Shown piece by piece: positions 29,623 through 59,331 of a stretch of 59,331 nt of DNA (the stretch's first letter is position 1; every line of letters begins with the position of its first letter). Location of the stretch: contig JAFLBY010000002.1 in NCBI GenBank assembly GCA_017302855.1, positions 1 to 59,331 on the forward strand. Reading direction: 5' to 3'. Made by a program: the position numbers and the translations under genes. The notes beneath the pieces were generated by a model. That model did not search any database and was not told the DNA's origin. It saw nothing but the letters and a program-made list of their open reading frames with translations. The DNA is from Candidatus Kapaibacterium sp. GTDB lineage: Bacteria > Bacteroidota > Ignavibacteria > Kapaibacteriales > UBA961.

Positions 29623-31287
29623 TCATTCTTCCAGAAATTGTTGAAGGAATGATACTATATTGCCATGAGCAGCTATGCCGAGTTTCTTACGAATTGTCGA
29701 ACGGTATTTTTCAACCGTCCGCTCCGAGACACCCAACGTAATCGCTATCTTCGATGTACTCAATTGCATCATCATCAATGCACATGTCTTTATTTCTCCG
29801 TCATTTAATTCTTTATACATAGACTCCAATCGCGACATAAATTCTCCATACACCGCACGCAATTGAAGCAATACAACTATGCGGTCTTCTTCATCGCCTA
29901 CACGCTCATCCAATAATTCTATCACACTATATACCGCGCGACGACTCTCGCCATTAGTCAAACTCATAGCATATTCTAATTTACCCGATATGCTCCGAAT
30001 AAATTGACTCTTTCGTACCAAACGTTCTATCAATTCTTCAAGCTCTTTTTTCATCAATGCTATATTGCGTGCTAATTCCTCAGCCTTCAAACGCTGTATC
30101 TCTCCGTCGCGTTCCGCTATCGCACGGGCTTTCTCTTTCTCCATAATTTGACGAAGTAAATCAAAACGATCCGCTTGCTTCTTTACCTCAAGACTTTGGA
30201 CTTCTTTTTCTAAAGAATGATATTGTTCTATGTGATATGAATATTTCTCCCACTCTTTTTCATGTTTATAGAACTCTGCAATAGAATTATGAAGAAAACA
30301 AAGATGATCTTGGAGTTTAAGTTCATTGCTAAGAGCAAGTGCTTTTTCATAATAATATTCCGCCTTTTCTTTACTGTACCCCTCATAATCAACATTTGTC
30401 ATTAATCGCGCGATATTTCCAAAAGATGCCGCAATAGCAACGTGATCACCTAGTTCTTCATTAATGGCTAACGATTTTTCAAAATAGGAAAGAGCTTGTG
30501 AATATTGACTTTGATCTGCGTAAATCATACCCATGCTATCGAATATAATTGAGAGACCTTCTTTATTATCAATTTGTTCACATAATATTAATGCTTTATT
30601 GAGACACTCCAAAGCCTGCGAAAAATATGTCATATTTTTATACACATTTCCCATATTGGTCAATAAAATAGCAACACCCATTGTATTACCTACCATTTCA
30701 TTAAGCACAATGCCACGATCATAATACTCTAATGCTTTGGGGTAATCATTGAGCCGAGCATATAGACTTCCAATATTCACCAATGCACTCATAATTCCTT
30801 GGTTATTATGAAGTTTTTCATTTATGTCGAGTGCTTTGTGAAAATATTCCAATGATTTTATATAATTACCAAGTGTATAATGAACAATTCCAATATTAAG
30901 GTAATTTTTTGCTGTACTTCTCTTATCATCTATTTCTTGAGAAAGTTCAAGAGCTTTTTCATAATATTCCATACATTGTGCAAAATCGGCAAGCGTTTCA
31001 TAGACAATACCTAAAGATCCAAAGACTTTCAATTGTAGAGACTTTATTGCGTTATTTTCTGCAATTCTTGCTGTTTTCTCGAAATAAGGCAATGCATCTT
31101 TCGATAATCCACGGCGGAGTAAAGAATCACCAATAATAAATAAAAGCTGAGCTTGCAATTCAGAATTTTCTTCTATCATTGCCTCATTCAATAAACTTTG
31201 GGCTTGCACCTCTGCTTCAGCATAATTATGAGCATGTAGATTTTGTTCTACTTCATTAATATTCTGTTGTATTTGTTCTATTGTCAT
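29623..31287 (-). CDS. TPR-repeat LuxR/GerE-family transcriptional regulator
   Basis: The N-terminal TPR part is distinct, while the C-terminal ~200 aa are virtually identical to the 27405..29435 product. Its start overlaps the stop of the upstream cyclase gene (ATGA at 31284..31287). Confidence 0.85.
   Translation of the reverse strand: MTIEQIQQNINEVEQNLHAHNYAEAEVQAQSLLNEAMIEENSELQAQLLFIIGDSLLRRGLSKDALPYFEKTARIAENNAIKSLQLKVFGSLGIVYETLADFAQCMEYYEKALELSQEIDDKRSTAKNYLNIGIVHYTLGNYIKSLEYFHKALDINEKLHNNQGIMSALVNIGSLYARLNDYPKALEYYDRGIVLNEMVGNTMGVAILLTNMGNVYKNMTYFSQALECLNKALILCEQIDNKEGLSIIFDSMGMIYADQSQYSQALSYFEKSLAINEELGDHVAIAASFGNIARLMTNVDYEGYSKEKAEYYYEKALALSNELKLQDHLCFLHNSIAEFYKHEKEWEKYSYHIEQYHSLEKEVQSLEVKKQADRFDLLRQIMEKEKARAIAERDGEIQRLKAEELARNIALMKKELEELIERLVRKSQFIRSISGKLEYAMSLTNGESRRAVYSVIELLDERVGDEEDRIVVLLQLRAVYGEFMSRLESMYKELNDGEIKTCALMMMQLSTSKIAITLGVSERTVEKYRSTIRKKLGIAAHGNIVSFLQQFLEE
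29625..30231. repeat. 607-bp near-identical duplicated 3' module (copy 2)
   Basis: See 27410..28016. Confidence 0.9.
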
Positions 31288-33167
31288 GCTTTCTCCAAAA
31301 AATATGTTCTCATTGTTCCTTTGCCTTTTATTTCCATTTCACCACGCGGAACGAATATGAATTGAGAATTAATAATTACGAATTGAGAATTGTCGCCTGT
31401 TAATTCTTTGTCCTTCATTCCTAATTCTTCATTCCTCATTCCTAATTCTCTTACAAATTCTTCCGACACATGGATTTTACCTGCTTCGCCGTGGCTTTCC
31501 ATTCTGCTTGCCGTGTTCACGGCATCGCCCCATAAATCATAAGCAAATTTCTGTTCACCGATTACTCCTGCCACTACTTCGCCGCAGTGTAAGCCGATGC
31601 GTACATTGACTGTCTGTCCGGCTATTGTGATTCTATTTTTAAATAAATCTTGAATTTCCAATGCAAATGCAGCCGTTCTCTCGGCATGATTTTCCATGAA
31701 TAACGGCACGCCACAGACTGCCATGTAGGCATCACCTATAGTCTTGATTTTTTCGAGTCCGTGCTTTTTGGCGAGGATATCATATTGAATGAATAATTCA
31801 TTCAACCCAGACACTAATTCCTTTGCCGACATCTTCTGCGAAAGCGTCGTAAATCCCACTATATCAGAGAAAAAGACCGAAACATTTTCTACTTTGTCGG
31901 CAATGGGTTGTTCGCCTTTGATCAAGCGTTCGGTGATTTGGGAGGGCAAGATATTATCGAGGATTTTCTCCTGCTCCTGAAATCGGGCGAGTTTGATTTG
32001 GCGGTCCCGCTCTGCTTCTTCTATCTTACGACGATGTTCCATAAGCTGCGCTTCTTTGACTGCTTCCTCGCTTTGAACTTCAAGATAAAGCTCATGGAAT
32101 TTTTTGTAATGAACAGCAAAGTCTTCCCAGCGTTCCTGTTGTTCATAAAGGTCAGCAAGGTATTTATGACATGCATACAGTTCTTTCTTTATGCTGAGTT
32201 CTTTGAAAATTGACAATGCATTCAATAGAAACTCTTCTGCTTTCTCCGGGTCATAGCCCTCATACTGTTCAGAAGCATACACTTTCCCGATAGTACTCAT
32301 CCAACCCGCTACACCTGCATTATAGCCAAGTTCCTCACATAGTGCAAGCGCACGGCTATAATACTCCTTTGCGTTTGTATAGTCCAAAAGATCCATATAC
32401 ACATTCCCGATGTTGCCGATATTTATTGCCACGCCGTGCTTATTATCGAGTTCTTCATCAAGTGCAAGCGCCTTGTAATAATATTCCAAAGCTCGCGGAT
32501 AATCAGAAAGATTCGCATACACATTTGCCATATTGCCGTTAACATTTGCTATACCTTGTTTATTACCGAGCTCTTCATGGAGCACAAGTGATTTAGCATA
32601 ATACTCCAAAGCTCGTGGATAATCAGAAAGATTCGCATACACAATCCCAACGTTACAAGTATTGTTTGCCACACCATTTTTGTTACCATGTTCTTCATGG
32701 AGAGCAAGTGCCTTTGCCAAATACTCCAAACCATCGATATATTTCGCAAGATGCATATACACAATCCCAATATTGCTTATAATGTTTGCCATAGCATATT
32801 TATTATCAAGTTCTTCACGGAGTGTAAGTGCTTGCTTATAATATTCCAATGCACTCGAATAATCAGATAGTCTTTTATATATAAAACCGAGATTGGCAAG
32901 TACATTCGCTTGTAAGCCTTTTTCCTGTCCTTGTTCGGCAAGAGAAAGAGCTGTAAGTGCATATGACAAAGCATTCTTTGCCATATTACGCCGCCATAGC
33001 GATTCTGAGAGAGCAAACAGGGTACGGCAGTGAAGTTCTGATTCATTCGCAAGAGTATCATCAAGAAGTAGCTCTCTTGATTTTTTTTCTACTTCTTCAA
33101 AATCTTTACCCGAATTGAGTAATGCTTCAAGTTCTTCTATTTTAATTCTAAGCTGTTCTATCGTCAT
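31284..33167 (-). CDS. TPR-repeat class III adenylate cyclase
   Basis: TPR units and a coiled coil, then the CYCc domain: [59 protein letters not shown]. It carries an AT-rich insertion (RELGMRNEELGMKDKELTGDNSQFVIINSQF) in the last loop. Confidence 0.9.
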   Translation of the reverse strand: MTIEQLRIKIEELEALLNSGKDFEEVEKKSRELLLDDTLANESELHCRTLFALSESLWRRNMAKNALSYALTALSLAEQGQEKGLQANVLANLGFIYKRLSDYSSALEYYKQALTLREELDNKYAMANIISNIGIVYMHLAKYIDGLEYLAKALALHEEHGNKNGVANNTCNVGIVYANLSDYPRALEYYAKSLVLHEELGNKQGIANVNGNMANVYANLSDYPRALEYYYKALALDEELDNKHGVAINIGNIGNVYMDLLDYTNAKEYYSRALALCEELGYNAGVAGWMSTIGKVYASEQYEGYDPEKAEEFLLNALSIFKELSIKKELYACHKYLADLYEQQERWEDFAVHYKKFHELYLEVQSEEAVKEAQLMEHRRKIEEAERDRQIKLARFQEQEKILDNILPSQITERLIKGEQPIADKVENVSVFFSDIVGFTTLSQKMSAKELVSGLNELFIQYDILAKKHGLEKIKTIGDAYMAVCGVPLFMENHAERTAAFALEIQDLFKNRITIAGQTVNVRIGLHCGEVVAGVIGEQKFAYDLWGDAVNTASRMESHGEAGKIHVSEEFVRELGMRNEELGMKDKELTGDNSQFVIINSQFIFVPRGEMEIKGKGTMRTYFLEKA

Positions 33168-35180: not shown

Positions 35181-35590
35181 TATTGTACTTTCTCCAAAAA
35201 ATAGGTTTTCATTTTTCCTTTGCCTTTTATTTCCATTTCACCACGCGGAATAAACCGTAGAGACGGTGCGTGCACCGTCTCTACGGCATGTTTAAATTCT
35301 TCCGACACATGGATTTTTCCTGCTGCGCCATGACTTTCCATCCGGCTTGCTGTGTTCACAGCATCGCCCCATAAATCATAGAGGAACTTGTTCTCGCCGA
35401 CACACCTGCTGCTGCCGGACCACAATGCAGACCAATGCGCACTTCTATTTCGGGAATATTCTCTATCCATGATTTGTCACCCAATGAATCGGGAGTGGAA
35501 CTTACTGTTAAGTTTTTCATCATGTCAAGAAGTTTGAATGTGGCTTGTGTGTCAGTATCGTGGTTTTGTTCGCCACTTCTTGCCCAACCA
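35180..35590 (-). pseudogene. 5'-truncated, frameshifted cyclase remnant (long-arm subtype)
   Basis: Two overlapping ORF pieces (..[44 protein letters not shown] / ..[62 protein letters not shown]) match the last ~135 aa of the 38425 and 53950 genes. There is a 1-nt deletion near 35400, and homology stops near 35590. Confidence 0.85.
35255..35286. repeat. CDS-embedded 32-nt palindrome, variant A (perfect 15-bp arms)
   Basis: CCGTAGAGACGGTGC-GT-GCACCGTCTCTACGG. Confidence 0.95.
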
Positions 35591-35737
35591 TACAGTAAGT
35601 TATTGAAATTCATAAAAATGTATGAAATGATAACAATATTTTTATGCACAAAAATACAATTTCTATGCTCTATACAGGAAAAAAACCGTAAGTTGCAGCT
35701 AACTGTGTTTATGTATTCAATTTCGGGAGAAAAAACC

Positions 35738-36408: not shown

Positions 36409-38385
36409 TTAATCCGCCTTCTCCAAAAAATAGGTCTTCATCGTTCCTTTTCCTTTGATTTCGATTTCACCACGCGGAACGAATATGAATTGAGAATTGT
36501 CGCCAGTTAATTCTTTGTCCTTCATTCTTAATTCTTCATTCCTCATTCTTAATTCTCTTACAAAATCTTCCGTACAATGAATTTTCCCTGCTTCGCTGTG
36601 AGATTCCATTCTACTTGCAGTGTTTACGGCATCGCCCCAAAGGTCATATGTGTATTTATTCTTACCGATTACACCCGCCACGACCTCGCCGCTATGTATG
36701 CCTATACGCAAGCGAAGCGGCTTGCCGGTCAGGAAGGGGTTAAAGCGGCTGACGGCTTCCATCATGTCGAATGCCATAATAGCCAAAGCCTGTGCATGGT
36801 CAGAGCGTGGTATGGGTGCTCCGCTTACCACCATATAGGCGTCGCCCATTGTTTTAATTTTTTCTAAGCCATACTTTTCGGCTAATTCGTCGAAAATCGT
36901 GAAAATTGCGTTAAGCCCCTTCACGAGTTCCTCGGGAGAAATGTCTTGTGATAATGAGGTAAATTCGACAATATCGGCGAAAAGTACCGAAACGGTATCG
37001 AGTTTATCGGCGATGAGCTTTGTACCCCCCAGTATCCTGCCGGCAATTTCCGGCGGCAGCACATTGTGAAGCAATTGTTCGGTCGCTTCGAGCCGTGTGC
37101 GCTCAATAGCCGCCTGTTTTTCACGTTCTGCCGTTTTGCGTTCGTAGTTCAGTCGCTCGGCTTGTTTTTTTGTTTCTTCGTTTAATACCTCTTTTTCAAG
37201 AGCATAAAAGAGTTGATGATGGGTGAATGCTTTTTCCCAGTTGCGGGTTAGCTGAAAGAGGACTGCCAGACAATAGTGCGTTTCGTAAAGTTCTTTTTTG
37301 GCACCAAGCTCTTCGAAGAGTTCCTTTGCTCGCAGAAAATATCGTTCGGCAAGGACAGGATCATATTCGGCATTGTCGTCGTCCGAATACAATCCGGCTA
37401 TATTCTGTGTGCAGTTGGCTATTCCAGCGATATTGTTGACCTCGGTATAGAGTTCTAATGCCTTGTTGCAATAATCCATTGCACCCGCATGGTCGCCCAT
37501 CATTTTGCAGTTGCTCCCGATATTGACATACACATCGGCGACTCCTGCCTTGTTCCCAAGCTCATTGTGAATGCCGAGAGCACGCTTATAATATTGCAAT
37601 GACATTGTATAGTCATGAAGATAAAAATGCACGGCAGCTATATTACCGGTTAAGGATGCTGCTCCCACTTTGTCGCCGAGTTGCTCTTTTGTCATAAGTG
37701 CCTTGTGGTAGTAGTCGAGGGCGATGTTATACTCCTTCATGGCAAGATAGATATTCCCGATGTTACCTAATTGCGTAGCGGTGTCTGACATATTATTGGA
37801 CGCTTCCGCAAGGGCGAGGGATTTATGGAACAAAGACAAAGCATTTGGGTAATCTGCAAACAGTAGGAAGATATTGCCGAGATTGCCTGTGTGAATAGCG
37901 ATAGCAGCGGCATTGCCGGTTTGTTCAGCCAATGAGAGGGCTTTTTGGTAATATACCAGCGCGTTCGGATAGTCGGACATGAGGAGAAAAAGGTTGCCAA
38001 GATTGCCCGTGTGATCAGCCACACCACGCCAATTTCCGAGTTCTTCGTCCAATGCGAGTGCCTTGCGGTAATATTCTGCCGCAGTTGTATAGTCCGAGAG
38101 GTTGCGGTAAGCGCGTCCGATATTGCCGAGGGTAATGGCAATTCTACCGGAGTCGCCTATGACTTCAAATGATTCGTGCGCCAATTGATACTGCTCGAGA
38201 GCTTTCAAATATTCTCCGTGTCGTTGGGCGATATTGCCTATAAACACAGCAGCCCTTCCGGCTTGCAATGAGTTTCCTGATAGCCGGGCGACATTTAGGG
38301 CGGCGACGGCAGCAGATTCGGCTTCTTCGTAGCACCCATGTTGGAAATGTTCGTCGGCTGTTTTATTGAGTTCTTCGGCTGTCAT
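36409..38385 (-). CDS. TPR-repeat class III adenylate cyclase
   Basis: [40 protein letters not shown]. It carries the AT-rich insertion subtype (RELRMRNEELRMKDKELTGDNSQF). Confidence 0.9.
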   Translation of the reverse strand: MTAEELNKTADEHFQHGCYEEAESAAVAALNVARLSGNSLQAGRAAVFIGNIAQRHGEYLKALEQYQLAHESFEVIGDSGRIAITLGNIGRAYRNLSDYTTAAEYYRKALALDEELGNWRGVADHTGNLGNLFLLMSDYPNALVYYQKALSLAEQTGNAAAIAIHTGNLGNIFLLFADYPNALSLFHKSLALAEASNNMSDTATQLGNIGNIYLAMKEYNIALDYYHKALMTKEQLGDKVGAASLTGNIAAVHFYLHDYTMSLQYYKRALGIHNELGNKAGVADVYVNIGSNCKMMGDHAGAMDYCNKALELYTEVNNIAGIANCTQNIAGLYSDDDNAEYDPVLAERYFLRAKELFEELGAKKELYETHYCLAVLFQLTRNWEKAFTHHQLFYALEKEVLNEETKKQAERLNYERKTAEREKQAAIERTRLEATEQLLHNVLPPEIAGRILGGTKLIADKLDTVSVLFADIVEFTSLSQDISPEELVKGLNAIFTIFDELAEKYGLEKIKTMGDAYMVVSGAPIPRSDHAQALAIMAFDMMEAVSRFNPFLTGKPLRLRIGIHSGEVVAGVIGKNKYTYDLWGDAVNTASRMESHSEAGKIHCTEDFVRELRMRNEELRMKDKELTGDNSQFIFVPRGEIEIKGKGTMKTYFLEKAD

Positions 38386-40593: not shown

Positions 40594-40619
40594 TAGGACA
40601 GCCACATAGGGCTGTCCTA
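40594..40619. repeat. Intergenic REP-like palindrome
   Basis: TAGGACAGCC-ACATAG-GGCTGTCCTA forms a 10-bp stem. Confidence 0.85.
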
Positions 40620-40628
40620 CAAATCCTA

Positions 40629-46647: not shown

Positions 46648-48390
46648 TCAATCCTGTTCAGACAATTTTTCCAAAAAATAGGTCTTCATCATGCCTTTGC
46701 CTTTGATTTCCATTTCACCACGCGGGCTAAACCGTAGGGACGGTTCATGCACCGTCTCTACGGCATGTTTAAATTCTTCCGAAATATGGATTTTCCCCGC
46801 TTCGCCATGACTTTCCATTCTTGCTGCTGTGTTCACGGCATCGCCCCATAAATCATAAGCAAATTTCTTCTTTCCAATTACTCCTGCCACAACCTCTCCG
46901 CTATGAATGCCAATACGGATTTGAATTTCCTCGCCTGTGGAAATTGAACGAAATTCCTTCATTGCTTCCATCATTTCTATTGCCATAAGTGCCATTGCTT
47001 GGGCGTGGTCTTCACAGGGTTCGGGTGCGCCACTTACGACCATGTACGCATCGCCAATAGTCTTGATTTTTTCGAGTCTGTGTTTTTCGGCGAGCGTGTC
47101 GAAAGCGGAGAAGATTCTATCTAATCCGGCAACAAGTTCTTCCGCTGAAATGCGCGAAGAGAGTTTTGTAAATCCAACGATATCCGCAAAAAGCACGGAG
47201 ACATTTTCTAATTTCTCGGCTATCAAGCTTTCGCCGGCAATCATTCTATGAGCAATACTTGGCGGTAGAACATTGTGTAAGAGTTGCTCAGTGGCTTCGT
47301 GTTTGGCACGCTCTACGGCAAGGTTTTTATCGCGTTCTGTTTGCTTGCGTTCAAAGTCCCATCGCTCTGCTTGCTTCTTGGTTTCCGCGCTTTGCACTTC
47401 TTTTTCCAACTCGTGGTATTTCTTATAATTGTGGTATGCTTCCGTATTCCGTTCCAGTTTCTCATAGAAATCTGCAAGGGACTTATAAATCTCAGACTGC
47501 TCATTCTTTGCACCGATTTCTTCAAACAAAGAAAGTGATTTGAGCAGATATTCTTCTGCTTTAGCTGCATCATATTCCCCAAACTCCTGTTTTGCATACA
47601 CGGTCCCAATATTTCCAGTAACTACGGCAAGGCTGGATTTCCTTCCGAGTTGATTATTGAGCTCAAGAGTTTGCTTATAGTATTCCAATGCCTTGTCGTA
47701 GGAGCCAAGATTCTTATACACACTCCCTATGTTTCCTGTAACTCTGGCAATGGCAGATTTCTCCCCGAGTTCATTGTGGAGGTCAAGGGCATGCATATAG
47801 TATTCTAATGCAATGTCGTAAGAGCCAAGAGAATTATGCACATTCCCGATATTCCCCGTAACGATGGCAATGCCTGATTTATCTCCGCGTTCATTATTGA
47901 GAGCGAGAGCTTGTACATAGTATTCCAATGCCTTGTCATAGGAGCCAAGATTAGAATACACATTTCCGATATTCCCCGTAACTGCCGCAATACCGTTTTT
48001 TTCCCCGAGTTCATTGTGGAGAGCAAGAGCTTGAACGAAGTATTCCAATGCCTTCTCGTACGAGCCAACATTCTTATACACAATCCCGATATTCGCTGTA
48101 ACGTTGGCAATGCCTAATTTATCGGGAATAGATTGAAAACGTACAAGAGCATCGTTGAGAAGTACGAGCGCAGAGTTGTAATCGCCCTGCCTCCAAGCGG
48201 CTTCACCAAGTATGCGCATAGATTTAGCACAAAGCATGAGCCGATCGGTGGCCTGTTGAGCCTCGCCTGGTGGTAGCTCATTACAGTATTGCAATACCTC
48301 TCTGGAAAGGAGTTCAGATTCTGCATAGTTGCCTTTTTTCATCTCGGTATCGGCGAGCATGAGTTTTTCTTGTAATTGTTCGAGTCTCAT
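46648..48390 (-). CDS. TPR-repeat class III adenylate cyclase
   Basis: Four 40-aa TPR units, then [40 protein letters not shown]. Confidence 0.9.
   Translation of the reverse strand: MRLEQLQEKLMLADTEMKKGNYAESELLSREVLQYCNELPPGEAQQATDRLMLCAKSMRILGEAAWRQGDYNSALVLLNDALVRFQSIPDKLGIANVTANIGIVYKNVGSYEKALEYFVQALALHNELGEKNGIAAVTGNIGNVYSNLGSYDKALEYYVQALALNNERGDKSGIAIVTGNIGNVHNSLGSYDIALEYYMHALDLHNELGEKSAIARVTGNIGSVYKNLGSYDKALEYYKQTLELNNQLGRKSSLAVVTGNIGTVYAKQEFGEYDAAKAEEYLLKSLSLFEEIGAKNEQSEIYKSLADFYEKLERNTEAYHNYKKYHELEKEVQSAETKKQAERWDFERKQTERDKNLAVERAKHEATEQLLHNVLPPSIAHRMIAGESLIAEKLENVSVLFADIVGFTKLSSRISAEELVAGLDRIFSAFDTLAEKHRLEKIKTIGDAYMVVSGAPEPCEDHAQAMALMAIEMMEAMKEFRSISTGEEIQIRIGIHSGEVVAGVIGKKKFAYDLWGDAVNTAARMESHGEAGKIHISEEFKHAVETVHEPSLRFSPRGEMEIKGKGMMKTYFLEKLSEQD
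46732..46763. repeat. CDS-embedded 32-nt palindrome (variant A', two imperfections)
   Basis: CCGTAGGGACGGTTCATGCACCGTCTCTACGG. Confidence 0.9.
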
Positions 48391-50972: not shown

Positions 50973-52193
50973 TTAATGCAATTGGGGAATCTCAATGATA
51001 AATTTTGTGCCCTTGGTTTGATTCTCGAACCACACCTTACCTCGCAATGCACGAACAAGATTGGCAACTAATGCCAGTCCTAAACCTACGGATGATTCGC
51101 CTCCGGTCGGCTTTGCCGAGAGTTTCGAATATGCTTGGAAAACAAGGTCTTTCTCCGAGTCGGGAATGCCCGGACCTTCATCAATTATCTCACAACGCAA
51201 CAGGTCTCCATTCTGCATACATGATGTTGTGATGGTAGAGTGTTCAGGAGAGAATTTTACCGCATTGGAGACTAACTGTGTCAGTATTGTTTCTATATGC
51301 TGAGGGTCGGTACGAACCATATTGAGATTGCTCGCACGCTTGAATTCTATCTGTATATTTTTTGCTTTTGCTTGTTGTCTATAAGTCAAATCTATCGTTT
51401 GTAAAATCATTCCAATATCGAATCTGACAGGATTGACATTAACACTAATTTCAGACTGATTTAACTCTATAAGATTAGCGATGATTTCACGTATTCGTCT
51501 TGCCGTTTGCGAGATGCTTACCAAACTGTCTTGAGCTTTGGCTGGCGAGGTAGTGCTTATGTTTTTTACGAGTTGCACAGCCGTATGGTTAATGGAGTCT
51601 ATGGGTTTTTTGATGTCGTCGGCAGCAAGAGCAAGAAAATGAGATTTTTCTTTATTCAATTTTATTAAACCCGTATTCATGTTCAATACCTCATGATTCA
51701 AACGCTCCAACTCATCGGTTTTCTTTTGCAACTGTTCAGTTCTTTGAGCGACTTGCGCTTCCAATGTTTTGTTATATTGAGCAAGGTGTTCGAGCAGTGC
51801 TCTGTTTTCACGAACAAGACGCAAATTCTCTATACCACTCTCCATTGTCATCTTCAAGTCATTCTCTTCCCATGGCTTACCAATATATCGGTACACCTGC
51901 GCCTTATTAATGGAAGAAACAACGGACTCAATATCGCTGTATCCTGTGAGTATAATTCTGATTGCTTCTGGCGCAATATCACGCGAATGGACTAAAAACT
52001 CAACACCTGTCATCTCAGGCATCCTTTGGTCAGAGATAATAACATCTACGCTATTCTCGCGCAATATCTGAAGTGCTTCATGCCCTGATAAAGCTGTGAG
52101 GACACGGTAATCAAAACGGAATGTCGCCTTAAATGACACCAAATTGTGTTCTTCGTCATCGACATAGAGTACAGTTGATTTTTCTTTGTTCAT
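50973..52193 (-). CDS. Hybrid REC - HisKA-like - HATPase_c protein whose H-box lacks the phospho-acceptor His
   Basis: REC domain: VLYVDDEEHNL...VIISDQRMPEMTGVEFL...GKPW. A coiled coil follows. The H-box position reads FLALAADDIKKPIDSI where FLA..SHELRTPL..I is expected. The N box NAVKFSP, G1 IDEGPGIP and G2 GLGLALV are intact. Confidence 0.8.
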   Translation of the reverse strand: MNKEKSTVLYVDDEEHNLVSFKATFRFDYRVLTALSGHEALQILRENSVDVIISDQRMPEMTGVEFLVHSRDIAPEAIRIILTGYSDIESVVSSINKAQVYRYIGKPWEENDLKMTMESGIENLRLVRENRALLEHLAQYNKTLEAQVAQRTEQLQKKTDELERLNHEVLNMNTGLIKLNKEKSHFLALAADDIKKPIDSINHTAVQLVKNISTTSPAKAQDSLVSISQTARRIREIIANLIELNQSEISVNVNPVRFDIGMILQTIDLTYRQQAKAKNIQIEFKRASNLNMVRTDPQHIETILTQLVSNAVKFSPEHSTITTSCMQNGDLLRCEIIDEGPGIPDSEKDLVFQAYSKLSAKPTGGESSVGLGLALVANLVRALRGKVWFENQTKGTKFIIEIPQLH

Positions 52194-52222: not shown

Positions 52223-53953
52223 CTATTGTTGCAATGGAAGCGTAATTATAAACTCTGTGCCAACTCCAATTTTGCTCTGAACAGTTATGTCTCCATTATT
52301 TTTTTTGATGATATCATAACAAATTGAAAGCCCAAGTCCTGTACCAACCCCAATCGGTTTGGTAGTAAAAAACGGCTCAAAGATACGGTTAATTAGCTCA
52401 TCACTTATTCCTCCACCGGTATCACGAATACTGACCAGAACATTGTCTGCTTGTTGCGATGTGGTTATAGTGATTGTTCCCGAACCTTGTATAGCTTGAA
52501 TTGCATTAACCAAGATATTCATAAATACCTGATTGAGCGGTCCCGGTAAGCACATAATTTGAGGAATGGGTCCATAGTTTTTATGAATGGTTATAGCATC
52601 GCCTATTTTACTGCGCAAGAGTATCAAGGTGGCATCAATACCTTCGTGAATGTCGGTGAGCTTCAGCTCATGTTCATCTAAACGGGAGAATGTGCGTAAT
52701 CCTTTGACTATATCACTCGTCCTTTTTGCTCCGTCTTCGATTGCTCGTAATAAACTCTCTATTTCTTCTTTCAGCTCAACAACAACATCATCTTGGTTTT
52801 CAGGAAGGTAAGTGTTTATCAGATAGCTTATATCGCGTTTTAATGGTAACAAAGACGCACCGATAAAGCCAATAGGATTATTAAGTTCATGAGCAATACC
52901 CGCGGTCAGCTGACCGAGTGATGCCATCTTTTCGGCTTGAACGAGTTGTTGTTCATTTTCTCGAAGGTCTCTCAATGCACGTTCCAATTGCTCATTGGCA
53001 TTGCGAAGTTCGCCATTGCGAAGCTCGGAAAGTTCGGCATTTTTCTTTGCCAAATCAAGGGATAATTCCGCCTCGATTACCGCTGTTTTTTTCGCAACAT
53101 CAATGGACTGTAGCTCATTCTGCAATAAGCTGAACTGCTTTTGGTGTTCGTATGACTTCCGCCAATCCTCCACTGACTCATAGGCGGCGGCAAGAGTTGA
53201 ATGGATGTCGGAAAGATACTTTTTAGCACCAACTTCTTCCAACATACTTTGCCCACGAAGCAAATCGTGGAGAATATTTGGGGGAATTTGCCGTACTTTT
53301 TGGTCAGCCAGATTTGAAAATGCCAAATGTCCGCGCCAACCAAGAGATTGCCCCAACCCGAGTTTATCTTCGACCTTATTAAAACACTCAATTGCACTAT
53401 CAACCGCTGCGAGAGCTTCGGGTGTGTTTCTAAGTCTTGCAAAAACTTTGGAGAAATTCAAGTGGGCATATCCCAGAGAACGAATATTGTTATTTCTTTG
53501 TAAAATCTCGACAGCTTTAGCACACAGACTACTCGCCTCTTCCGCATTATTGGTGTTCAATTCGACAATCGAAAGATTAAGAAGAACCACTCCCAGAAGC
53601 GGATCTGATTTCTCCAATAATTTTCGAGATATTTCAAGGTTTTGCTCCGCTTTTTCAAACTCACTAATCGTTAAATAGAGATAACCGAGAGCATTATGCG
53701 CTGTTGCCAACAATGCCGGATTATCAAGTGGCGTGGCAAGCTCAATTGCGGTGCGCAAACACTCAAGTCCCGCAACGTACTCAGTTTGAAATGTACGAGC
53801 ATTTCCAAGCATAACAAGTACGCGAACTGTTTCAGCATTGGCGACACGCTCCTGTTTTGCATATAGATATGATTCCGCCAATTCGACTACTTGAATAAAT
53901 TGTCCTCGTGAATAGAATTGTTCAATTAATGCGAGAGTTTCTGTTGATATCAT
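52223..53953 (-). CDS. Cytoplasmic TPR-repeat sensor histidine kinase
   Basis: TPR region and coiled coil, H-box LTAGIAHELNNPIGFI, N box NAIQAI, DTGGGI and GTGLGLSI. Its start overlaps the stop of the upstream cyclase gene (ATGA at 53950..53953). Confidence 0.85.
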   Translation of the reverse strand: MISTETLALIEQFYSRGQFIQVVELAESYLYAKQERVANAETVRVLVMLGNARTFQTEYVAGLECLRTAIELATPLDNPALLATAHNALGYLYLTISEFEKAEQNLEISRKLLEKSDPLLGVVLLNLSIVELNTNNAEEASSLCAKAVEILQRNNNIRSLGYAHLNFSKVFARLRNTPEALAAVDSAIECFNKVEDKLGLGQSLGWRGHLAFSNLADQKVRQIPPNILHDLLRGQSMLEEVGAKKYLSDIHSTLAAAYESVEDWRKSYEHQKQFSLLQNELQSIDVAKKTAVIEAELSLDLAKKNAELSELRNGELRNANEQLERALRDLRENEQQLVQAEKMASLGQLTAGIAHELNNPIGFIGASLLPLKRDISYLINTYLPENQDDVVVELKEEIESLLRAIEDGAKRTSDIVKGLRTFSRLDEHELKLTDIHEGIDATLILLRSKIGDAITIHKNYGPIPQIMCLPGPLNQVFMNILVNAIQAIQGSGTITITTSQQADNVLVSIRDTGGGISDELINRIFEPFFTTKPIGVGTGLGLSICYDIIKKNNGDITVQSKIGVGTEFIITLPLQQ

Positions 53954-55932
53954 AGATATTTCTCCAAGAAATAGGTTTTCATTTTTCCTTTGCCTTTAAT
54001 TTCTATTTCGCCACGGGGGATAAACCGTAGGGACGGTTCATGCACCGTCTCTACGGCATGTTTAAATTCTTCCGAAACATGGATTTTTCCTGCTTCGCCG
54101 TGGGATTCCATCCTGCTTGCCGTGTTCACGGCATCGCCCCATAAATCATACAGAAACTTGTTCTCGCCGACAACACCCGCCGCCGCAGGACCACAATGCA
54201 GACCAATGCGAACTTCTATTTCGGGAATACTCTCTATCCAACTTCTATCACCATATTCAGGAGGAAAACTTACCACTAAGTTTTGCATGACATCAAGGAG
54301 TTTGAGTGCTGCGTTTGCGGCGCGATGGGCATGGTCTTCTTGCATAATCGGTGCACCGGCAACCGCCATGTATGCATCGCCTATGGTCTTGATTTTCTCC
54401 AAACCGAACTCGCGCATTACGCCATCGGCAGCAGTAAAAATAGCATTGAGCAAATGCACAAGTTGCTGCGCGGAAATAGTTGTCGAGAGTTTTGTAAAAT
54501 CAACAATGTCCATGAAGAGAACAGAAACTCCATCGTAGTGGTCCGCTATGGGATTCTCCCCTTTTATCAGGCGTTGCGTAATTCCTTCAGGAAGGATATT
54601 GTTCAGGATGTTCTCGCGCTCTTGGAAGCGTGTACGGTCTATCTCCATTTCTTTTTCGCGCTCGGCGACTTGCTTCTGTTGCTCCATGAGCATTGCTTTT
54701 TTCTTCGCTTCTTCGCTTTGGACTTCTTCTTTTAGTTCGTGATATTTTGTCTTGTGCTTATATGCCTCTTCCCAGCGTTTTTGTTGCTCGTACAGTTCAG
54801 CAAGACCTTTATGTGTTTCATACTGAAAATTCTTTGCACCGATATCTTCAAACCCGCTTAGTACTTTGATCAGATATTCTTCTGCTTTTGCAGGGTCGTA
54901 GCCATCGAAGTCCTGCTGTGCGTAGGTTGCTCCGATGTTGCCGAGATTAATTGCCACACCTGCTTTGTTGCCGAGTTCTTCATCGAGTGCTAGTGCCTTG
55001 CCGTAGTACTCCAAGGCACGGGCATAGTCCGAGAGATTCCTATGCACAGTCCCGATATTGCCGAGATTGTTTGCCACGCCTGCTTTGTTGCCGAGTTCTT
55101 CTTCGAGTGTTAATGCCTTGCCGTAGTACTCCAAGGCACGGGCATAGTCCGAGAGAGAATGATGCACAGTCCCGATGTTGCCGAGATGTCTTGACACGCC
55201 TGCTTTGTTACCAAGTTCTTCATCAAGCGCTAATGCCTTGCCATAGTACTCCAAAGCACGGGAATAGTCCGAGAGAGAATGATAGACAATACCGATGTTA
55301 CCGAGATTAGTTGCCATGCCTGTTTTTTTGCCGAGTTCTTCATCGAGTGATAATGCCTTGCCATAGTACTCCAAGGCAAGCGCATAGTCCGAGAGATTCT
55401 GATGGACAAGACCGATATTGCCAAGACAACTTGCCACACCTGCTTTGTTGCCGAGTTCTTCATGGAGTGATAATGCCTTACTATAGTACTCCAAAGCACG
55501 GGCATAGTCCGAGAGATTCTGATGCACAATCCCGATATTACCGAGGTATATTGCCACGCCTGCTTTGTTACCGAGTTCTTCATTGAGCGCTAATGCCTTG
55601 CCATAGTACTCCAAAGCACGGGAATAGTCCGAGAGATTCGCATGCACAGTCCCGATATTGCCGAGTGTTTTGGCTTGCAGTTTTTTACTATCTATGAGTT
55701 CGGCAAGGGCAAGTGCTTGTTCGGCGTATGGCAATGCATCTTTTGCCATACCACGCCGCCACAACGATTGCGAGAGAGCAAGCAGGATGCGGCAGTGGAG
55801 CTCCGATTCATTCATAAGAGCATTTTCTGCAAGCAGTTCCCGCGCTTGGGTTTCAACAAGAGCATAGTCAGAACCGCTCTGAATCATTGCTTCGATTTCT
55901 TCTACTTTGATTTTGAGTTCGTCGTGGGTCAT
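53950..55932 (-). CDS. TPR-repeat class III adenylate cyclase
   Basis: Start set at MTHDELK (55932). Six near-uniform 40-aa TPR units, then [40 protein letters not shown]. Confidence 0.9.
   Translation of the reverse strand: MTHDELKIKVEEIEAMIQSGSDYALVETQARELLAENALMNESELHCRILLALSQSLWRRGMAKDALPYAEQALALAELIDSKKLQAKTLGNIGTVHANLSDYSRALEYYGKALALNEELGNKAGVAIYLGNIGIVHQNLSDYARALEYYSKALSLHEELGNKAGVASCLGNIGLVHQNLSDYALALEYYGKALSLDEELGKKTGMATNLGNIGIVYHSLSDYSRALEYYGKALALDEELGNKAGVSRHLGNIGTVHHSLSDYARALEYYGKALTLEEELGNKAGVANNLGNIGTVHRNLSDYARALEYYGKALALDEELGNKAGVAINLGNIGATYAQQDFDGYDPAKAEEYLIKVLSGFEDIGAKNFQYETHKGLAELYEQQKRWEEAYKHKTKYHELKEEVQSEEAKKKAMLMEQQKQVAEREKEMEIDRTRFQERENILNNILPEGITQRLIKGENPIADHYDGVSVLFMDIVDFTKLSTTISAQQLVHLLNAIFTAADGVMREFGLEKIKTIGDAYMAVAGAPIMQEDHAHRAANAALKLLDVMQNLVVSFPPEYGDRSWIESIPEIEVRIGLHCGPAAAGVVGENKFLYDLWGDAVNTASRMESHGEAGKIHVSEEFKHAVETVHEPSLRFIPRGEIEIKGKGKMKTYFLEKYL
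54025..54056. repeat. CDS-embedded 32-nt palindrome (variant A')
   Basis: CCGTAGGGACGGTTCATGCACCGTCTCTACGG. Confidence 0.9.
54940..55665. repeat. Tandem 120-bp in-frame repeats (6 TPR units)
   Basis: Same unit family as 39405..40250, with long identical strings between units and between the two genes. Confidence 0.85.
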
Positions 55933-56001: not shown

Positions 56002-56095
56002 GTAGAACAGCCACATAGGGCTGTCATACAAATCATGGTCCGGACATTGTTTCTTTTGTATTTCATTTTATGTCAGCCACATAGGGCTGTTCTAC
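56002..56095. repeat. Two REP-like palindromes, one 66-bp unit
   Basis: GTAGAACAGCCACATAGGGCTGTCATAC (56002..56029) and GTCAGCCACATAGGGCTGTTCTAC (56072..56095). Confidence 0.9.
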
Positions 56096-56108
56096 AAATC
56101 CAAAAAAA

Positions 56109-58016
56109 TCATGGTTCAGACACTTTCTCCAAAAAATAGGTTCGCATTGTACCCTTACCTTTAATGTCGATTTCTCCGCGTGGGATAAACCGTAGGGACG
56201 GTTCATGCACCGTCTCTACGGCATGTTTAAATTCTTCCGAAACATGGATTTTACCTGCTTCGCCATGACTTTCCATCCTGCTTGCCGTGTTCACGGCATC
56301 GCCCCATAAATCATAACTCAAACGTTTAGTACCAATAATCCCGGCTATTGCTTCACCGCAAGCAATACCTATGCGCAAACTTAAAGGTATTCCTTCTACA
56401 GGAGAATGTATATTTGGAGCAAGTGAAAGAATTGCACACGCAAAATTTGCTGCGCGTTGAGCATGATCCGGTGTCCATTTCGGTATGCCTGCTACAGCCA
56501 TATATGCGTCCCCTATGGTTTTTATTTTTTCGACTCCATATCGAGCAGCACATTCATCAAATGCAGAAAAAGCTGTATTTAAAAATTCCAATAAAAGTTC
56601 AGGTTCTATACTTTGCGATAATGATGTAAAATTGACAATATCAATAAATATAATGGAAACGGAAGAGAAGTAATCCGCAATTTTTTCTCGATTCATCATA
56701 CGATTCACAATTGATTCCGGTGCTATATTAGTAAGAAGTTGTGTCTCAATTTCCTTTTTTCTGATATTTTTTTCCGACTTCATTTTTTCGGCAAGTTCCT
56801 TTTCTTTGTCGGTAATTTTTGACTCTGTCATAGTAATATATCGTTTTAATAGCATCAAGGATTCTATGACATTTCCTTCACGATCATATACCTCGGCAAG
56901 TAATTTATATGGGGTTAAATCTTGCTTATCATGTTTTTCATCCGATTCTGTTATTGACTTATTCAAATAATGAATAGCTTTTTGAGAGTCGTACAAAGAA
57001 GAATTTTCCGCACTATATATTGTTCCAAGCATTGAGTGAATATAACTTGTTTTATGAGGGAATTTACCTGCTTGTGTAATAATGTTCAACAGAATATTCT
57101 CTGCCTCTGCATAACGATGTAATCGGATAAGCGTGCGAGCAATATTACATCGAACATCGGCAAGTTGTTCAGGTTCGCCCAGTGCCACTGTCTTTGTTTC
57201 GATTTCTTTTTCTATCTCAAGTGCCTTTTCAAAATTTCCTCGAACAACCTCAATATTTGCCAATGATGTTTTATTCCGTAAAAGCCATGAAATATTATTC
57301 AGTTCTTCATTAATAGTTGCTGCTTGCATCAAGTAATTTTCTGCTGCAAGATAATCACCCATGTTAATATAAAGCACACCAAAGGTATGAAGTATTGAAC
57401 TTTGAGCCATTTTATTGCCAAGCTCTTGAGCTAAATGTAAAGCACGTGAGCTATGTTCAAGCCCATCTGCATAATATCCAAGTTTTGCATACGATTGTCC
57501 AAGATTTATTTGTGCACCAAGCTCAACACGTGTATCACCATAATATTGTGCAATTGCTATGCACTCAATATAACGCTCTATAGACTCTGACATCTTGCCC
57601 ATAGTAGATTCCAGATTAGCAATATTGGTGAGTATCGATGCATACTGAAGTCGGTCTTCATTGTTTTTTACAATTGCTAATGCTTTGTTATAATTGAGAT
57701 AAGCGTCATCATAACGATTTGTGTAATAATAAATCACACCTAATGAGTTATATGCTTTTTGTAATATATTTTCATCGCTGTTTTGTTGCGCAAGCTCAAT
57801 TAATTGTAAGGCGATTTCTTCTGCTTCCGTATATCGAGCACTCCGAGTACATATTGTTACCAGAACACCAAGCAATTGCATCACCATATTTGGATTTTGT
57901 TCCTTTTCATAAATCTGTAATAATTCATTACAACGATTTTCAGCACCATTTATATCGCCGCGGTCATACATTGCCTTTATACGATCCACTTCATTACTGT
58001 TATGTTCTTTTTTCAT
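56109..58016 (-). CDS. TPR-repeat class III adenylate cyclase (divergent TPR part)
   Basis: [40 protein letters not shown]. The TPR region is AT-richer and less regular than in the neighbouring paralogues. Confidence 0.9.
   Translation of the reverse strand: MKKEHNSNEVDRIKAMYDRGDINGAENRCNELLQIYEKEQNPNMVMQLLGVLVTICTRSARYTEAEEIALQLIELAQQNSDENILQKAYNSLGVIYYYTNRYDDAYLNYNKALAIVKNNEDRLQYASILTNIANLESTMGKMSESIERYIECIAIAQYYGDTRVELGAQINLGQSYAKLGYYADGLEHSSRALHLAQELGNKMAQSSILHTFGVLYINMGDYLAAENYLMQAATINEELNNISWLLRNKTSLANIEVVRGNFEKALEIEKEIETKTVALGEPEQLADVRCNIARTLIRLHRYAEAENILLNIITQAGKFPHKTSYIHSMLGTIYSAENSSLYDSQKAIHYLNKSITESDEKHDKQDLTPYKLLAEVYDREGNVIESLMLLKRYITMTESKITDKEKELAEKMKSEKNIRKKEIETQLLTNIAPESIVNRMMNREKIADYFSSVSIIFIDIVNFTSLSQSIEPELLLEFLNTAFSAFDECAARYGVEKIKTIGDAYMAVAGIPKWTPDHAQRAANFACAILSLAPNIHSPVEGIPLSLRIGIACGEAIAGIIGTKRLSYDLWGDAVNTASRMESHGEAGKIHVSEEFKHAVETVHEPSLRFIPRGEIDIKGKGTMRTYFLEKVSEP
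56190..56221. repeat. CDS-embedded 32-nt palindrome (variant A')
   Basis: CCGTAGGGACGGTTCATGCACCGTCTCTACGG. Confidence 0.9.
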
Positions 58017-58057: not shown

Positions 58058-59331
58058 TCACTGATATTGTTCCAAAAAATATGTCTTCATTTTTCCTTTG
58101 CCTTTGATGTCCATTTCACCGCGGGGGATAAACCGTAGGGACGGTACCTGCACCGTCTCTACGGCACGCATAAAAGCTGCGCTACAATGAATTTTACCTG
58201 CTTCGCCGTGGGATTCCATTCTGCTTGCCGTGTTCACCGCATCGCCCCATAAATCATAGGCGAATTTCTTTTTGCCAATCACGCCGGCTACCACTTCTCC
58301 GCTGTGAATTCCGATGCGGATTTGCACTTCTTCACCGGTAGAAATTGACCGAAATTCTTTCATTTTTGCTACCATTTCAAGCGCAAAATTTGCCATCGTT
58401 TCTGCGTGGTCGGCACGTACTTCAGGCGCACCCGCAACCACCATATACGCATCACCAATCGTTTTGATTTTCTCCAAACCATACTTCTCGACCAGAGCGT
58501 CAAATTCACTGAAAATTCTATCGAGTCCTTCGACAAGTTCTTCAGGAGTAATGCTTTGCGAAAGTTTCGTAAAATTCACGATGTCGGCAAAAAGCACCGA
58601 CACGCTTGGGATTTTCTCAGCGATGAGCTGTGTGCCGTCGAGCATTCTTGCTGCTATGGTTGGGGGGAGTACATTGTGAAGTAATTGTTCCGTGGCTTGG
58701 TGTTTAGCATCAGCGGCTGCTTTGGCAAGTTCTATTGCTTTGCGTTGTTCGCGTATTGCCTCTTGCTTCTTTACTTCTTCGACATTTACTTCTTCTTTTA
58801 TCGCAATATGTTTTTTGTAGTGCGTGAAAGCATCTCCCAATCGTTGTTCTTGTTCATAAAGATCAGATAAGGTTTTGTGAAATTCAATCAATACTGCTTT
58901 ATATCCTATTCCTGTGCTTAGGTCAATAGCTCGCAGCAGGTATTCTTCCGCTTTATCGGGGTCGTAGCCATCGAAGTCCTGCTTAGCATACGTTGCTCCG
59001 ATATTGCCGAGCCAAGTTGCCATACCTGCTTTGTTATCAAGTTCTTCATCAAGTGCTAATGCCTTGCCCATGTACTCCAAGGCACGGGCATAGTCCGAGA
59101 GCTTTTGATGTACATTCCCGATATTGCCGAGAATAGATGCCACGCCTCGTTTGTTGTCCAGTTCTTCATTCAGTGATAATGCCCTGCCCATGTACTCTAA
59201 TGCACGGGAATAGTCCGAGAGATAATAATACACATTTGCGATGTTGCCGAGATCTATAGCCACGCCTGTTTTATTGCCGAGTTCTTCATCCAATGCTAAT
59301 GCCTTACCTATGTACTCCAAGGCACGGGGAT
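58058..59331 (-). CDS. TPR-repeat class III adenylate cyclase, 5' end beyond the window
   Basis: The frame stays open to the right edge. [40 protein letters not shown]. Confidence 0.85.
   Translation of the reverse strand, partial: PRALEYIGKALALDEELGNKTGVAIDLGNIANVYYYLSDYSRALEYMGRALSLNEELDNKRGVASILGNIGNVHQKLSDYARALEYMGKALALDEELDNKAGMATWLGNIGATYAKQDFDGYDPDKAEEYLLRAIDLSTGIGYKAVLIEFHKTLSDLYEQEQRLGDAFTHYKKHIAIKEEVNVEEVKKQEAIREQRKAIELAKAAADAKHQATEQLLHNVLPPTIAARMLDGTQLIAEKIPSVSVLFADIVNFTKLSQSITPEELVEGLDRIFSEFDALVEKYGLEKIKTIGDAYMVVAGAPEVRADHAETMANFALEMVAKMKEFRSISTGEEVQIRIGIHSGEVVAGVIGKKKFAYDLWGDAVNTASRMESHGEAGKIHCSAAFMRAVETVQVPSLRFIPRGEMDIKGKGKMKTYFLEQYQ
58133..58164. repeat. CDS-embedded 32-nt palindrome (variant A'')
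   Basis: CCGTAGGGACGGTACCTGCACCGTCTCTACGG. Confidence 0.9.

Follow-up and report, generated by a model that had tools for sequence, protein, structure and literature searches.

What most of the multiplied class III cyclases of bacteria sense is a long-standing gap. In rhizobia, mycobacteria and Leptospira the cyclase genes are dispersed and heterogeneous in architecture, with varied sensor domains. In a 2005 census, the maxima were 37, 28, 18 and 16 cyclase genes per genome, with 37 in rhizobia, 28 in mycobacteria and 16-18 in Leptospira (PMC1183210). We have analysed computationally a 59,331-nucleotide stretch of DNA from Candidatus Kapaibacterium sp. (contig JAFLBY010000002.1, positions 1 to 59,331 of the forward strand), a genus of Bacteroidota in the FCB group. 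This whole stretch is called the window below. It carries ten minus-strand genes, here named AC1 to AC10, that combine an N-terminal tetratricopeptide repeat (TPR) part with a C-terminal class III cyclase. The lineage-specific multiplication of class III cyclases is shared with the repertoires mentioned above, whereas here a single architecture is found in same-strand arrays, with at least 34 open reading frames (ORFs) in 76 kb and ongoing gene conversion. We know of no comparable clustering of the cyclase genes in the census genomes.

Two other groups of described proteins are close. With the class IIIa cyclases, that is, mycobacterial Cya/Rv1625c and the mammalian membrane adenylate cyclases, the array proteins share the fold, the six catalytic residues, the Lys/Asp pair and a linker followed by a short helix. 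They differ from them in being soluble, in having an LGN-type TPR input instead of an anchor of six transmembrane helices, and in occurring as tens of tandem paralogues. The mycobacterial Rv0386-type and Leptospira LA_4008-type cyclase-ATPase-TPR(-LuxR) proteins unite class III cyclase, TPR and LuxR modules within one signalling family (PMC3789758). Their order is cyclase, STAND (signal transduction ATPase with numerous domains) ATPase, TPR, while in the array the TPR part comes first, the ATPase is absent, and LuxR or cyclase are alternative outputs. In general terms, fusions of TPR parts with cyclases and genomes with multiple cyclases are known. However, our literature search turned up nothing on arrays of TPR-cyclases and nothing on Kapabacteria/Ignavibacteria cyclases, and the view of the original prediction, which was made from the sequence alone, that the role of such an array is undescribed agrees with this. 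Previously undescribed, as far as our search goes, are the dense same-strand arrays of one TPR-cyclase architecture, the LGN-type repeats with a hypervariable groove, and the recombination dynamics.

The reading that we favour, and consider probable, is that of a birth-and-death array of soluble LGN/Pins-type TPR receptor adenylate cyclases with ligand-specific grooves and cyclic AMP (cAMP) output.

Gene inventory and cyclase part

In the ORF listing of the window, minus-strand ORFs were located at all ten places within 31284-59331 where the original prediction had put them, and its two decayed copies both proved to be genuine 3' ends of cyclase genes, one with a frameshift and one with an in-frame stop. 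The genes and remnants are the following:

31284..33167, minus strand: AC1, TPR (5 units plus cap) and class III cyclase, 627 aa
33237..35180, minus strand: AC2, degenerate TPR and cyclase, 647 aa
~35182..35600, minus strand: remnant 1, 3' part of a cyclase gene (the final ~140 codons), carrying one frameshift
36409..38385, minus strand: AC3, TPR and cyclase, 658 aa
38425..40524, minus strand: AC4, 7 near-identical TPR units, cap and cyclase, 699 aa
40629-40697, minus strand: remnant 2, final ~23 cyclase codons, one of them an in-frame stop; the usual junction module comes next
44405..46477, minus strand: AC5, TPR and cyclase; ATG at 46477, mechanical ORF to 46558
46648..48390, minus strand: AC6, 4 TPR units, cap and cyclase, 580 aa; the copy modelled with AlphaFold2
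48546..50786, minus strand: AC7, 8 TPR units, cap and cyclase
53950..55932, minus strand: AC8, 6 near-identical TPR units, cap and cyclase; ATG at 55932
56109..58016, minus strand: AC9, the most divergent copy, with degenerate MalT-like TPR and the homogenised tail, 635 aa
58058..59331, minus strand: AC10, TPR and cyclase, truncated by the window edge

The mechanical ORFs of AC5, AC7 and AC8 open at GTG/TTG codons within a conserved leader, and the true starts are likely the ATGs at 46477, 50786 and 55932. Remnant 1 is 85% identical to the 3' end of AC4, and its stop overlaps the ATG of AC2.

All ten proteins have a C-terminal match to Pfam PF00211 (Guanylate_cyc) with 171-225 bits (cut-off 21.9), and many TPR Pfam families match their N-termini. 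In a MAFFT alignment, the metal-binding Asp residues (F.D(I/L)V.FT and EKIKT(I/M)GDAYM), the Lys/Asp pair for ATP (EKIKT(I/M)GD and YD(L/M)WGD, aligned to C2 residues of mammalian AC9/AC5) and the transition-state Asn and Arg (VNTA(S/A)RMES) are found in 10/10 copies, as had been claimed, with only minor variants, namely NTAARMES in AC6, YDMWGD in AC5 and KTMGD in AC3. The nearest solved structures by sequence are those of mammalian AC9/AC5/AC8, mycobacterial Cya/Rv1625c and the natriuretic-peptide-receptor cyclase. With the full catalytic hexad in place and class IIIa structures nearest, all ten copies look like competent class IIIa-type adenylate cyclases, in line with the activity predicted before. 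Since every canonical residue is retained in all of them, no copy looks like a pseudo-enzyme.

The AlphaFold2 model of AC6 (pLDDT 90.7, obtained with a 50-sequence alignment) consists of helical hairpins (residues 3-311), a single helix (315-374), a short helix (377-384) and an alpha/beta domain (with strand 391). A Foldseek comparison of its catalytic part with the soluble domain of mycobacterial Cya (5o5k/5o5l) gives a TM-score of 0.91-0.92 at 43-45% identity. The cyclase transducer element (CTE), which couples sensors to class III cyclases, is composed of a long linker helix and a short helix (PMC5995499). AC6, the only copy modelled, matches this layout, with a helix of ~60 residues and a short helix just N-terminal to the core. 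The motif LL.N.LP..I is conserved in 9/10 copies, AC9 having LLTNIAPESI, and the linker motif of the original prediction is also present in the array proteins. The shared architecture that it described, that is, a cap, 4-8 TPR units of 40 aa, a linker and a cyclase, could thus be confirmed, with the qualification that the units of AC2 and AC9 are degenerate. The claim that signal peptides and transmembrane helices are absent fits as well: the maximal Kyte-Doolittle hydropathy (19-residue window) is at most 1.64 across the array proteins. Because these maxima are located in beta-strands of the cyclase part, and with the N-termini being charged, the proteins are taken to be cytosolic.

The TPR part and its groove

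The TPR units keep a strict 40-residue register, with 4-8 units per protein plus a capping unit, and their consensus is GVAxxLGNIGxVYxNLSDYxxALEYYxKALxLxEELGNKx. The best natural sequence match of the TPR part is LGN/GPSM2 (phmmer, E 1e-29), and the AC6 model's N-terminal part aligns with the TPR domain of LGN/Pins (4wnd) with a TM-score of 0.82 over 339 columns (Foldseek). The likeness, by fold and sequence match, includes the 40-residue period, the superhelix and a helix A of the G-N-x-G-N type. LGN/GPSM2/Pins is, in contrast, eukaryotic and has no enzymatic output. It binds extended peptides in its inner groove, where the ligands are held by Asn side chains (PMC3438535).

Over the 62 units of the window, the entropy peaks at helix-A positions 4, 5, 11, 14 and 15, and N8, G10, A22 and L30 hardly vary. 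High entropy is also seen at some positions of helix B and the loops, the exposed helix-B positions 20, 21, 27 and 33 being highly variable. The same pattern is obtained for 727 units from related genomes, and N8 is retained in 53/62 units of the window and 586/727 units of the relatives. Alignment to consensus TPR proteins shows that the canonical TPR numbering is the unit position minus 2, and positions 4, 5, 11, 14 and 15 are thus canonical 2, 3, 9, 12 and 13, while N8 is canonical 6. According to Magliery and Regan, the most variable TPR positions are 2, 5, 9, 12 and 13 (plus 33 and 34), all of them concave, and HOP binds its ligands via positions 2, 5, 6, 9, 12 and 13 (PMC1261162). Canonical positions 2, 9, 12 and 13 among the variable positions of the array are, by this comparison, known concave ligand-contact positions.

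The original prediction had pointed to the concave TPR positions as the place to look for selection, and the signal is indeed site-specific. AC4 and AC8 together contain 13 recently homogenised units that are ~84% identical in nucleotides and 73-77% in amino acids (73% for the AC4 units). In these units, the proportion of nonsynonymous differences (pN) over the pooled proportion of synonymous ones (pS), calculated from small counts, is 1.8-2.4 at positions 4, 5, 11 and 14, near 0 in the framework and near ~1 at helix-B positions. Between AC4 and its orthologue in a related locus (L070; 92.6% identical), the five variable positions show 9 nonsynonymous changes to 1 synonymous, compared to 12:14 at the other TPR sites (Fisher p=0.019). 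This pattern of variation is suggestive of selection for diversity in a candidate binding groove. It had also been claimed that divergence is concentrated in the TPR part. This holds for the five groove positions, with a mean amino-acid identity between paralogues of 0.12, but not for the TPR framework, which at 0.52 is as conserved as the cyclase core. The most divergent parts are instead the post-TPR cap and the linker (0.40-0.44).

It is also of interest to compare the array proteins with the RRNPP receptors (Rap, NprR, PlcR and PrgX), which are cytosolic TPR receptors of short peptides with helix-turn-helix (HTH) or enzymatic outputs. The TPR type and the phylum are different. We found no conserved propeptide gene next to the receptor genes of the array, the sole candidate being a 19-codon ORF in the 66-bp repeat described below.

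Recombination and turnover of the locus

The catalytic part and the 3' tail had been described as almost invariant. For the catalytic core this turned out to be incorrect: the mean identity between paralogues is only 54-61% in amino acids and 57-64% in nucleotides, and the cores fall into four or five subtypes, namely AC2 with AC7, AC4 with AC8, AC3 with AC6 and AC10, AC1 with AC5, and AC9. For the tail the description is right, but over the last ~80 codons only. There, the mean amino-acid identity is 0.78 and the nucleotide identity averages 78%, compared to 57% in the first part of the core, with 83-90% among AC4-AC9.

The tails group differently from the cores. In neighbour-joining trees of the core, the pairs (AC4,AC8) and (AC2,AC7) both have a bootstrap value of 1.00, whereas in the tail both pairs are split and (AC1,AC3) is obtained with 1.00. 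AC1 and AC3 also have in common an insert-bearing tail (MRNEEL.MKDKEL). AC4 is the closest paralogue of AC8, and the core of AC2 is of the AC7 type, with 86-97% nucleotide identity. A four-gamete statistic similar to PHI is 0.464, compared to 0.536+-0.008 upon permutation, with 0/2000 permutations as low. In the longest-identical-run test, uneven conservation acts as a confounder, and we do not count this test among the primary evidence. Identical residues are encoded by identical codons in 71% of the cases in the tail, compared to 42-54% in the other segments, which means that the homogeneity of the tail is at the DNA level, beyond that of the protein.

Individual genes show the same exchange. 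AC9 is 49-55% identical to the other copies in the first part of the core, yet its tail is 84-87% identical to those of AC4-AC8. AC7 is a mosaic of an AC4/8-type N-terminal cap, an AC2-type core and an AC5-type tail. The N-terminal caps are shuffled too, as AC1 and the TPR-LuxR gene LX2 (listed below) are 77% identical over the first 84 residues, and the 3' 636 bp of LX2 and its neighbour LX3 are 97.8% identical. An event can also be seen between genomes. Namely, the orthologue of AC10 in UBA2373 (locus L002) is 94% identical, with 87-100% per 60-nt window over the first ~540 aligned nucleotides, and has an AC1-type tail after "GKIH". In the orthologue of AC4, pS is 0.36 in the cyclase part and 0.00-0.08 elsewhere. 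The suggestion of the original prediction that the array evolves by duplication and gene conversion is thus supported by the conflict between the core and tail trees, by the permutation result and by the tail swap in the AC10 orthologue.

The homogenised tract is limited to the last ~80 codons and the hairpin/leader junction, continuing from the cyclase tails through the intergenic DNA. The junctions contain a 66-bp element (GATTTGTAGrACAGCCCTATGTGGCTG...) with nine copies on the minus strand, where none is expected by chance. Eight copies are directly 3' of the stops of AC5, AC6, AC7 and AC9 or in the ensuing tandem run, and one (40599-40625) follows remnant 2, with which it forms a joint feature (40599..40697, minus strand). 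The other positions are:

44243..44401, minus strand: hairpin element directly 3' of AC5, 2.4 copies by Tandem Repeats Finder, three matches to the 27-nt core motif
46552..46644, minus strand: hairpin element, 2 copies 3' of AC6, then a CA-rich leader to the AC5 ATG
48512-48538, minus strand: hairpin element 3' of AC7
56008..56100, minus strand: hairpin element, 2 copies 3' of AC9

The element contains a GTAG-headed 11-bp palindrome (GTAGGACAGCC/GGCTGTCCTAC), and the RNA of the AC6-AC5 junction folds with -36.5 kcal/mol (z=-3.15). After the hairpin comes a CA-rich leader with AATCA repeats, up to the next ATG. At two UBA2373 junctions, hairpin and leader show ~95% conservation, according to an estimate made by eye in the alignment. 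This module could act as a hotspot of recombination, as a processing site or as a translational leader. We have also considered the repeat as a peptide gene, but its 19-codon ORF (MKYKRNNVRTMICRTALCG) is absent at the single-copy junctions of UBA2373, and this option was rejected. So was a canonical intrinsic terminator, as there is no U-tract after the hairpin in the direction of transcription. Rfam at gathering thresholds gave no matches over the whole window. In view of the GTAG head, the repeat could be a repetitive extragenic palindromic (REP) element, which we mention as a lead. At 15125-15742 on the plus strand there is an ORF resembling IS200/Y1 transposases, with a weak Pfam match of 23.7 bits; a tandem repeat of 8 residues (NNHPDIYI...) interrupts it. 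This ORF may encode a transposase of the REP-associated kind that is connected with the GTAG hairpins.

We now turn to the related genomes. The best homologues are in metagenome-assembled genomes (MAGs) named Candidatus Kapabacteria/Kapaibacterium or "Ignavibacteria". A homologue scan with one genome per species returned 69 loci (numbered with the prefix L), and the cyclase hidden Markov model reveals same-strand arrays in many of them, for example 12 cyclases in 21.7 kb (L038) and 11 in 22 kb (L019). The contig JADJXV010000024.1 has 34 cyclase ORFs between 3.7 and 80 kb (76 kb), and the related MAGs contain at least 41, at least 35, at least 34 and at least 16 cyclases. Genes for TPR-LuxR proteins and TPR-histidine kinases are interspersed in these arrays too. 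The TPR-cyclase family is narrow: among 1.84 billion representatives, its specific module of cap, linker and CTE retrieves only 487 clusters (E<=1e-3).

The same locus is present in the 4.0-Mb contig L074 and in L070-L073 and L075, with conserved anchors, namely a TPR-histidine kinase of 575-576 aa, a receiver-HATPase protein of 406 aa and a BNR/sortilin-like protein. Between these anchors, cyclases occur in differing numbers; from the receiver-HATPase gene to the BNR gene there are three in the window and one in L074. The orthologue of AC4 in L070 is located upstream of AC5 and has one extra TPR unit (743 aa vs 699 aa), and this locus also has an intact 664-aa gene, whose 3' end is the counterpart of remnant 1. 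The arrangement of remnant 1 and AC2 is common to L075 and the window, and the orthologues of AC5 in L024 and L070 are 96.5-96.7% identical. With flanking segments at 96-98% identity, this turnover is recent. The array is a lineage-wide, syntenic and fast-turning-over locus, a point that was missed in the original prediction.

Taken together, these comparisons show that the locus evolves by tandem duplication and deletion, unequal crossing-over and gene conversion, and that the exchange is focused on the last ~80 codons, the hairpin repeat with its GTAG head and the 5' leader of the gene that follows. They also show that the TPR units are themselves duplicated and homogenised, while the groove positions stay diverse.

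Some further observations concern the DNA of the array. A gene for a DUF1016/YhcG protein (PD-(D/E)XK-like nuclease) is located inside the array in L070 (8126-9142) and L074 (17720-18736) and is absent from the window. The gap between AC3 and remnant 1 (35600-36400) has ~800 bp without an intact gene and is probably a deletion or insertion scar; a plus-strand ORF at 35435-35998 has an Ig-like-looking peptide at its end and no Pfam match. The GC content is 0.47-0.52 at 38000-44000 and 54000-56000 (AC4, the BNR gene and AC8), compared to 0.36-0.41 in the rest of the array, and in AC4 and AC8 the raised values coincide with the homogenised 120-bp TPR repeats. Finally, an 82-aa ORF (43929-44177, minus strand), with no Pfam or NCBIfam match, follows a leader that is also conserved at AC4, AC5 and AC8. 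Its beginning, MTPEQLQ, is like that of the TPR caps, the rest being unrelated. In L070, this ORF and the BNR gene downstream of it are jointly conserved at 97.6%.

Other outputs and the readings of the array

The TPR chassis of the cyclases is also joined to other output domains. These genes and the non-cyclase anchors are:

21316..23388, minus strand: LX1, TPR, coiled coil and LuxR/GerE HTH, 690 aa; a more distant member
27405..29435, minus strand: LX2, TPR (8 units), coiled coil and LuxR/GerE HTH, 676 aa
29623..31287, minus strand: LX3, TPR chassis, coiled coil and LuxR/GerE HTH, 554 aa
40729..43935, minus strand: BNR/Sortilin-Vps10-like protein, 1068 aa; non-cyclase, conserved syntenic anchor within the array
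50973..52193, minus strand: receiver and HATPase hybrid, 406 aa; conserved anchor downstream of HK1
52223..53953, minus strand: HK1, TPR, HisKA and HATPase, 576 aa; conserved anchor within the array

Four-base ATGA overlaps join the stop of AC8 to the start of HK1 (53950-53953) and the stop of AC1 to the start of LX3 (31284-31287), which suggests that translation of the cyclase genes is coupled to that of genes with the other kinds of output. The original prediction of a repertoire of diversified cytosolic TPR proteins therefore holds in its first part, but the repertoire does not converge on one messenger only, since the same chassis is fused to LuxR HTH and to HisKA/HATPase. Its statement that no effector binding cyclic nucleotides is visible in the window stands: Pfam finds no such domain in ORFs of at least 150 aa, and when E. 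coli CRP was compared by phmmer with every ORF of the window and of the 69 loci, matches were obtained only in two non-Kapaibacterium loci. No NCBIfam equivalog scored above its cut-off.

Outside the array, the plus strand at 10723-15116 carries a defence-type island with a GC content of 0.30-0.33, encoding an Eco57I-type N6 methylase, a GmrSD_N/DUF262 protein, a HEPN (MAE_28990/RiboL-PSP) protein and a BsuBI/PstI-type restriction endonuclease. Proteins with type IX secretion C-terminal sorting domains, one IgGFc-binding-like and one dioxygenase-like, are encoded at 17354-20446 (minus strand) and 23392-24540 (plus strand). They flank LX1, whose start overlaps the upstream ORF 20478-21329.

In the favoured reading as an array of receptor cyclases, the concave TPR groove would, by analogy with LGN, bind an extended peptide or protein segment. 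The conserved Asn (canonical position 6) would anchor the ligand backbone and the hypervariable canonical positions 2, 3, 9, 12 and 13 would set the specificity, such that each copy would recognise a different ligand. Occupancy would then be relayed via the dimeric linker helix and the transducer element to the homodimeric catalytic core, which, having the six canonical residues, is predicted to make cAMP from ATP. Ligand binding, allostery by the TPR domain, dimerisation and cAMP production are steps that we infer.

It is important to point out that several points speak against this reading. The sensing step is pure inference, since no ligand, partner gene or cAMP receptor is visible, and the catalytic competence is predicted from residues. 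The LGN analogy is imperfect, because the ligand-contact Asn of the LGN Leu-Gly-Asn triplet aligns with the variable position 11 (Asn in 19/62 units) and not with the conserved N8, and in AC2 and AC9 the TPR units are degenerate. The pN/pS values come from small counts, non-independent repeats and recombining sequences, and this inflates the apparent positive selection. Finally, some of the comparison contigs are metagenome assemblies of repetitive DNA, in which chimeras are possible, although the agreement of four independent contigs argues against an artefact.

The interpretation can be taken one step further. Namely, the locus would be a germline-encoded, rapidly diversifying repertoire of cytosolic peptide or protein receptors, with the groove kept diverse and the framework homogenised, with cAMP and parallel LuxR and histidine-kinase outputs, and with foreign proteins (of phage, prey or competitors) or many peptide signals as targets. 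We regard this as tentative and, on the whole, unlikely. It would evolve in the manner of the repeats of fungal NOD-like receptors (NLRs) or of lamprey variable lymphocyte receptors. The TPR, ANK and WD repeats of the fungal NLRs (PMC4986451) are similar in their homogenised units, differences in repeat number, nonsynonymous excess at the binding surface (for the array, a pN/pS of about 2 at few sites of the candidate groove) and swapping of output domains. The array, on the other hand, is bacterial, lacks NACHT/NB-ARC and has a predicted cAMP output, and the amino-acid identity of the AC4/AC8 units (73-77%) is below the 85% criterion used for the fungal repeats (PMC4986451).

Another option, likewise unlikely in our judgement, is that the TPR part is not a sensor but a scaffold, an oligomerisation module or an autoinhibitory module, that the copies differ mainly in expression or are partly redundant, and that the groove variation reflects relaxed constraint at exposed residues. 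In favour of this are the high variability of the exposed helix-B positions 20, 21, 27 and 33, the fact that no ligand candidates turned up, and the small counts behind the pN/pS values near 2. However, in the AC4/AC8 units the variation is concentrated at the helix-A positions 4, 5, 11 and 14, with helix B at ~1 and the framework near 0, and the variable positions match known TPR ligand contacts. In addition, the 10/10 intact frames and the presence of arrays across MAGs argue for selection on each copy.

We have also considered immune-like sensing of non-self, in which proteins of phage or of other foreign origin are the targets of the grooves and a cyclic nucleotide serves as the alarm, as in Pycsar or in STAND/NLR proteins with TPR sensors. 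The diverse groove positions, the rapid turnover of the gene content between ~97%-identical relatives and the restriction/GmrSD/HEPN island at 10.7-15.1 kb are compatible with this scenario, and the internally homogenised TPR units, the number of which varies in close relatives (699 vs 743 aa), resemble fungal NLR TPRs (PMC4986451). It is nonetheless improbable, for several reasons. There is no adjacent effector or cyclic-nucleotide-binding gene in the window or in the Kapaibacterium-like loci, and none of the 14 TPR proteins has a Pfam match to a NACHT, NB-ARC or AAA NTPase. A PADLOC scan returned only generic TPR matches and weak PycC matches (49-59 bits, compared to 171-225 for the generic PF00211) and thus gives no support for a known defence system, and the Lys/Asp pair points to ATP and not to a pyrimidine substrate. 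Moreover, the LuxR and histidine-kinase outputs of the same chassis, in a conserved syntenic chromosomal locus, have the look of ordinary signal transduction.

Substrate prediction from two residues is not infallible in class III cyclases. The array could accordingly make a nucleotide other than cAMP, or many copies could be silent partners acting only as heterodimers with a few active ones. Class III cyclases do work as dimers, and with the near-identical C-terminal end of the catalytic part, heterodimers are conceivable, but every canonical residue is kept in all ten copies and the Lys/Asp pair is the ATP signature, which makes this scenario very unlikely. That a few repeated genes were mis-assembled into an array is hardly credible: paralogous repeats are difficult to assemble and the comparison sequences are MAGs, but for most of their length the copies share only 50-85% identity, long stretches of identical sequence being absent, and syntenic arrays are found in independent assemblies, including the 4.0-Mb contig and the four concordant contigs.

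Returning to the array of receptor cyclases, it stands for a cyclase expansion of very high density: one 76-kb same-strand array has at least 34 ORFs and the related MAGs have at least 34-41 each, compared to the census tops of 37 and 28. Since about five positions in each 40-residue unit of a uniform, soluble and well-folding chassis appear to encode the specificity, discovery of the ligands is tractable, and the proteins are attractive as engineerable peptide-to-cAMP biosensors. The locus is also a natural experiment in repeat evolution, where a family of bacterial receptors, with one sensor and three output types, is shaped jointly by gene conversion, unequal crossing-over and an apparent selection for diversity. 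At the same time, it raises the puzzle of how tens of sensors feeding the same diffusible messenger can provide a cell with information. If the array is indeed a diversifying receptor repertoire, it would constitute a bacterial recognition system of a new kind, with a second-messenger cyclase as its basis.

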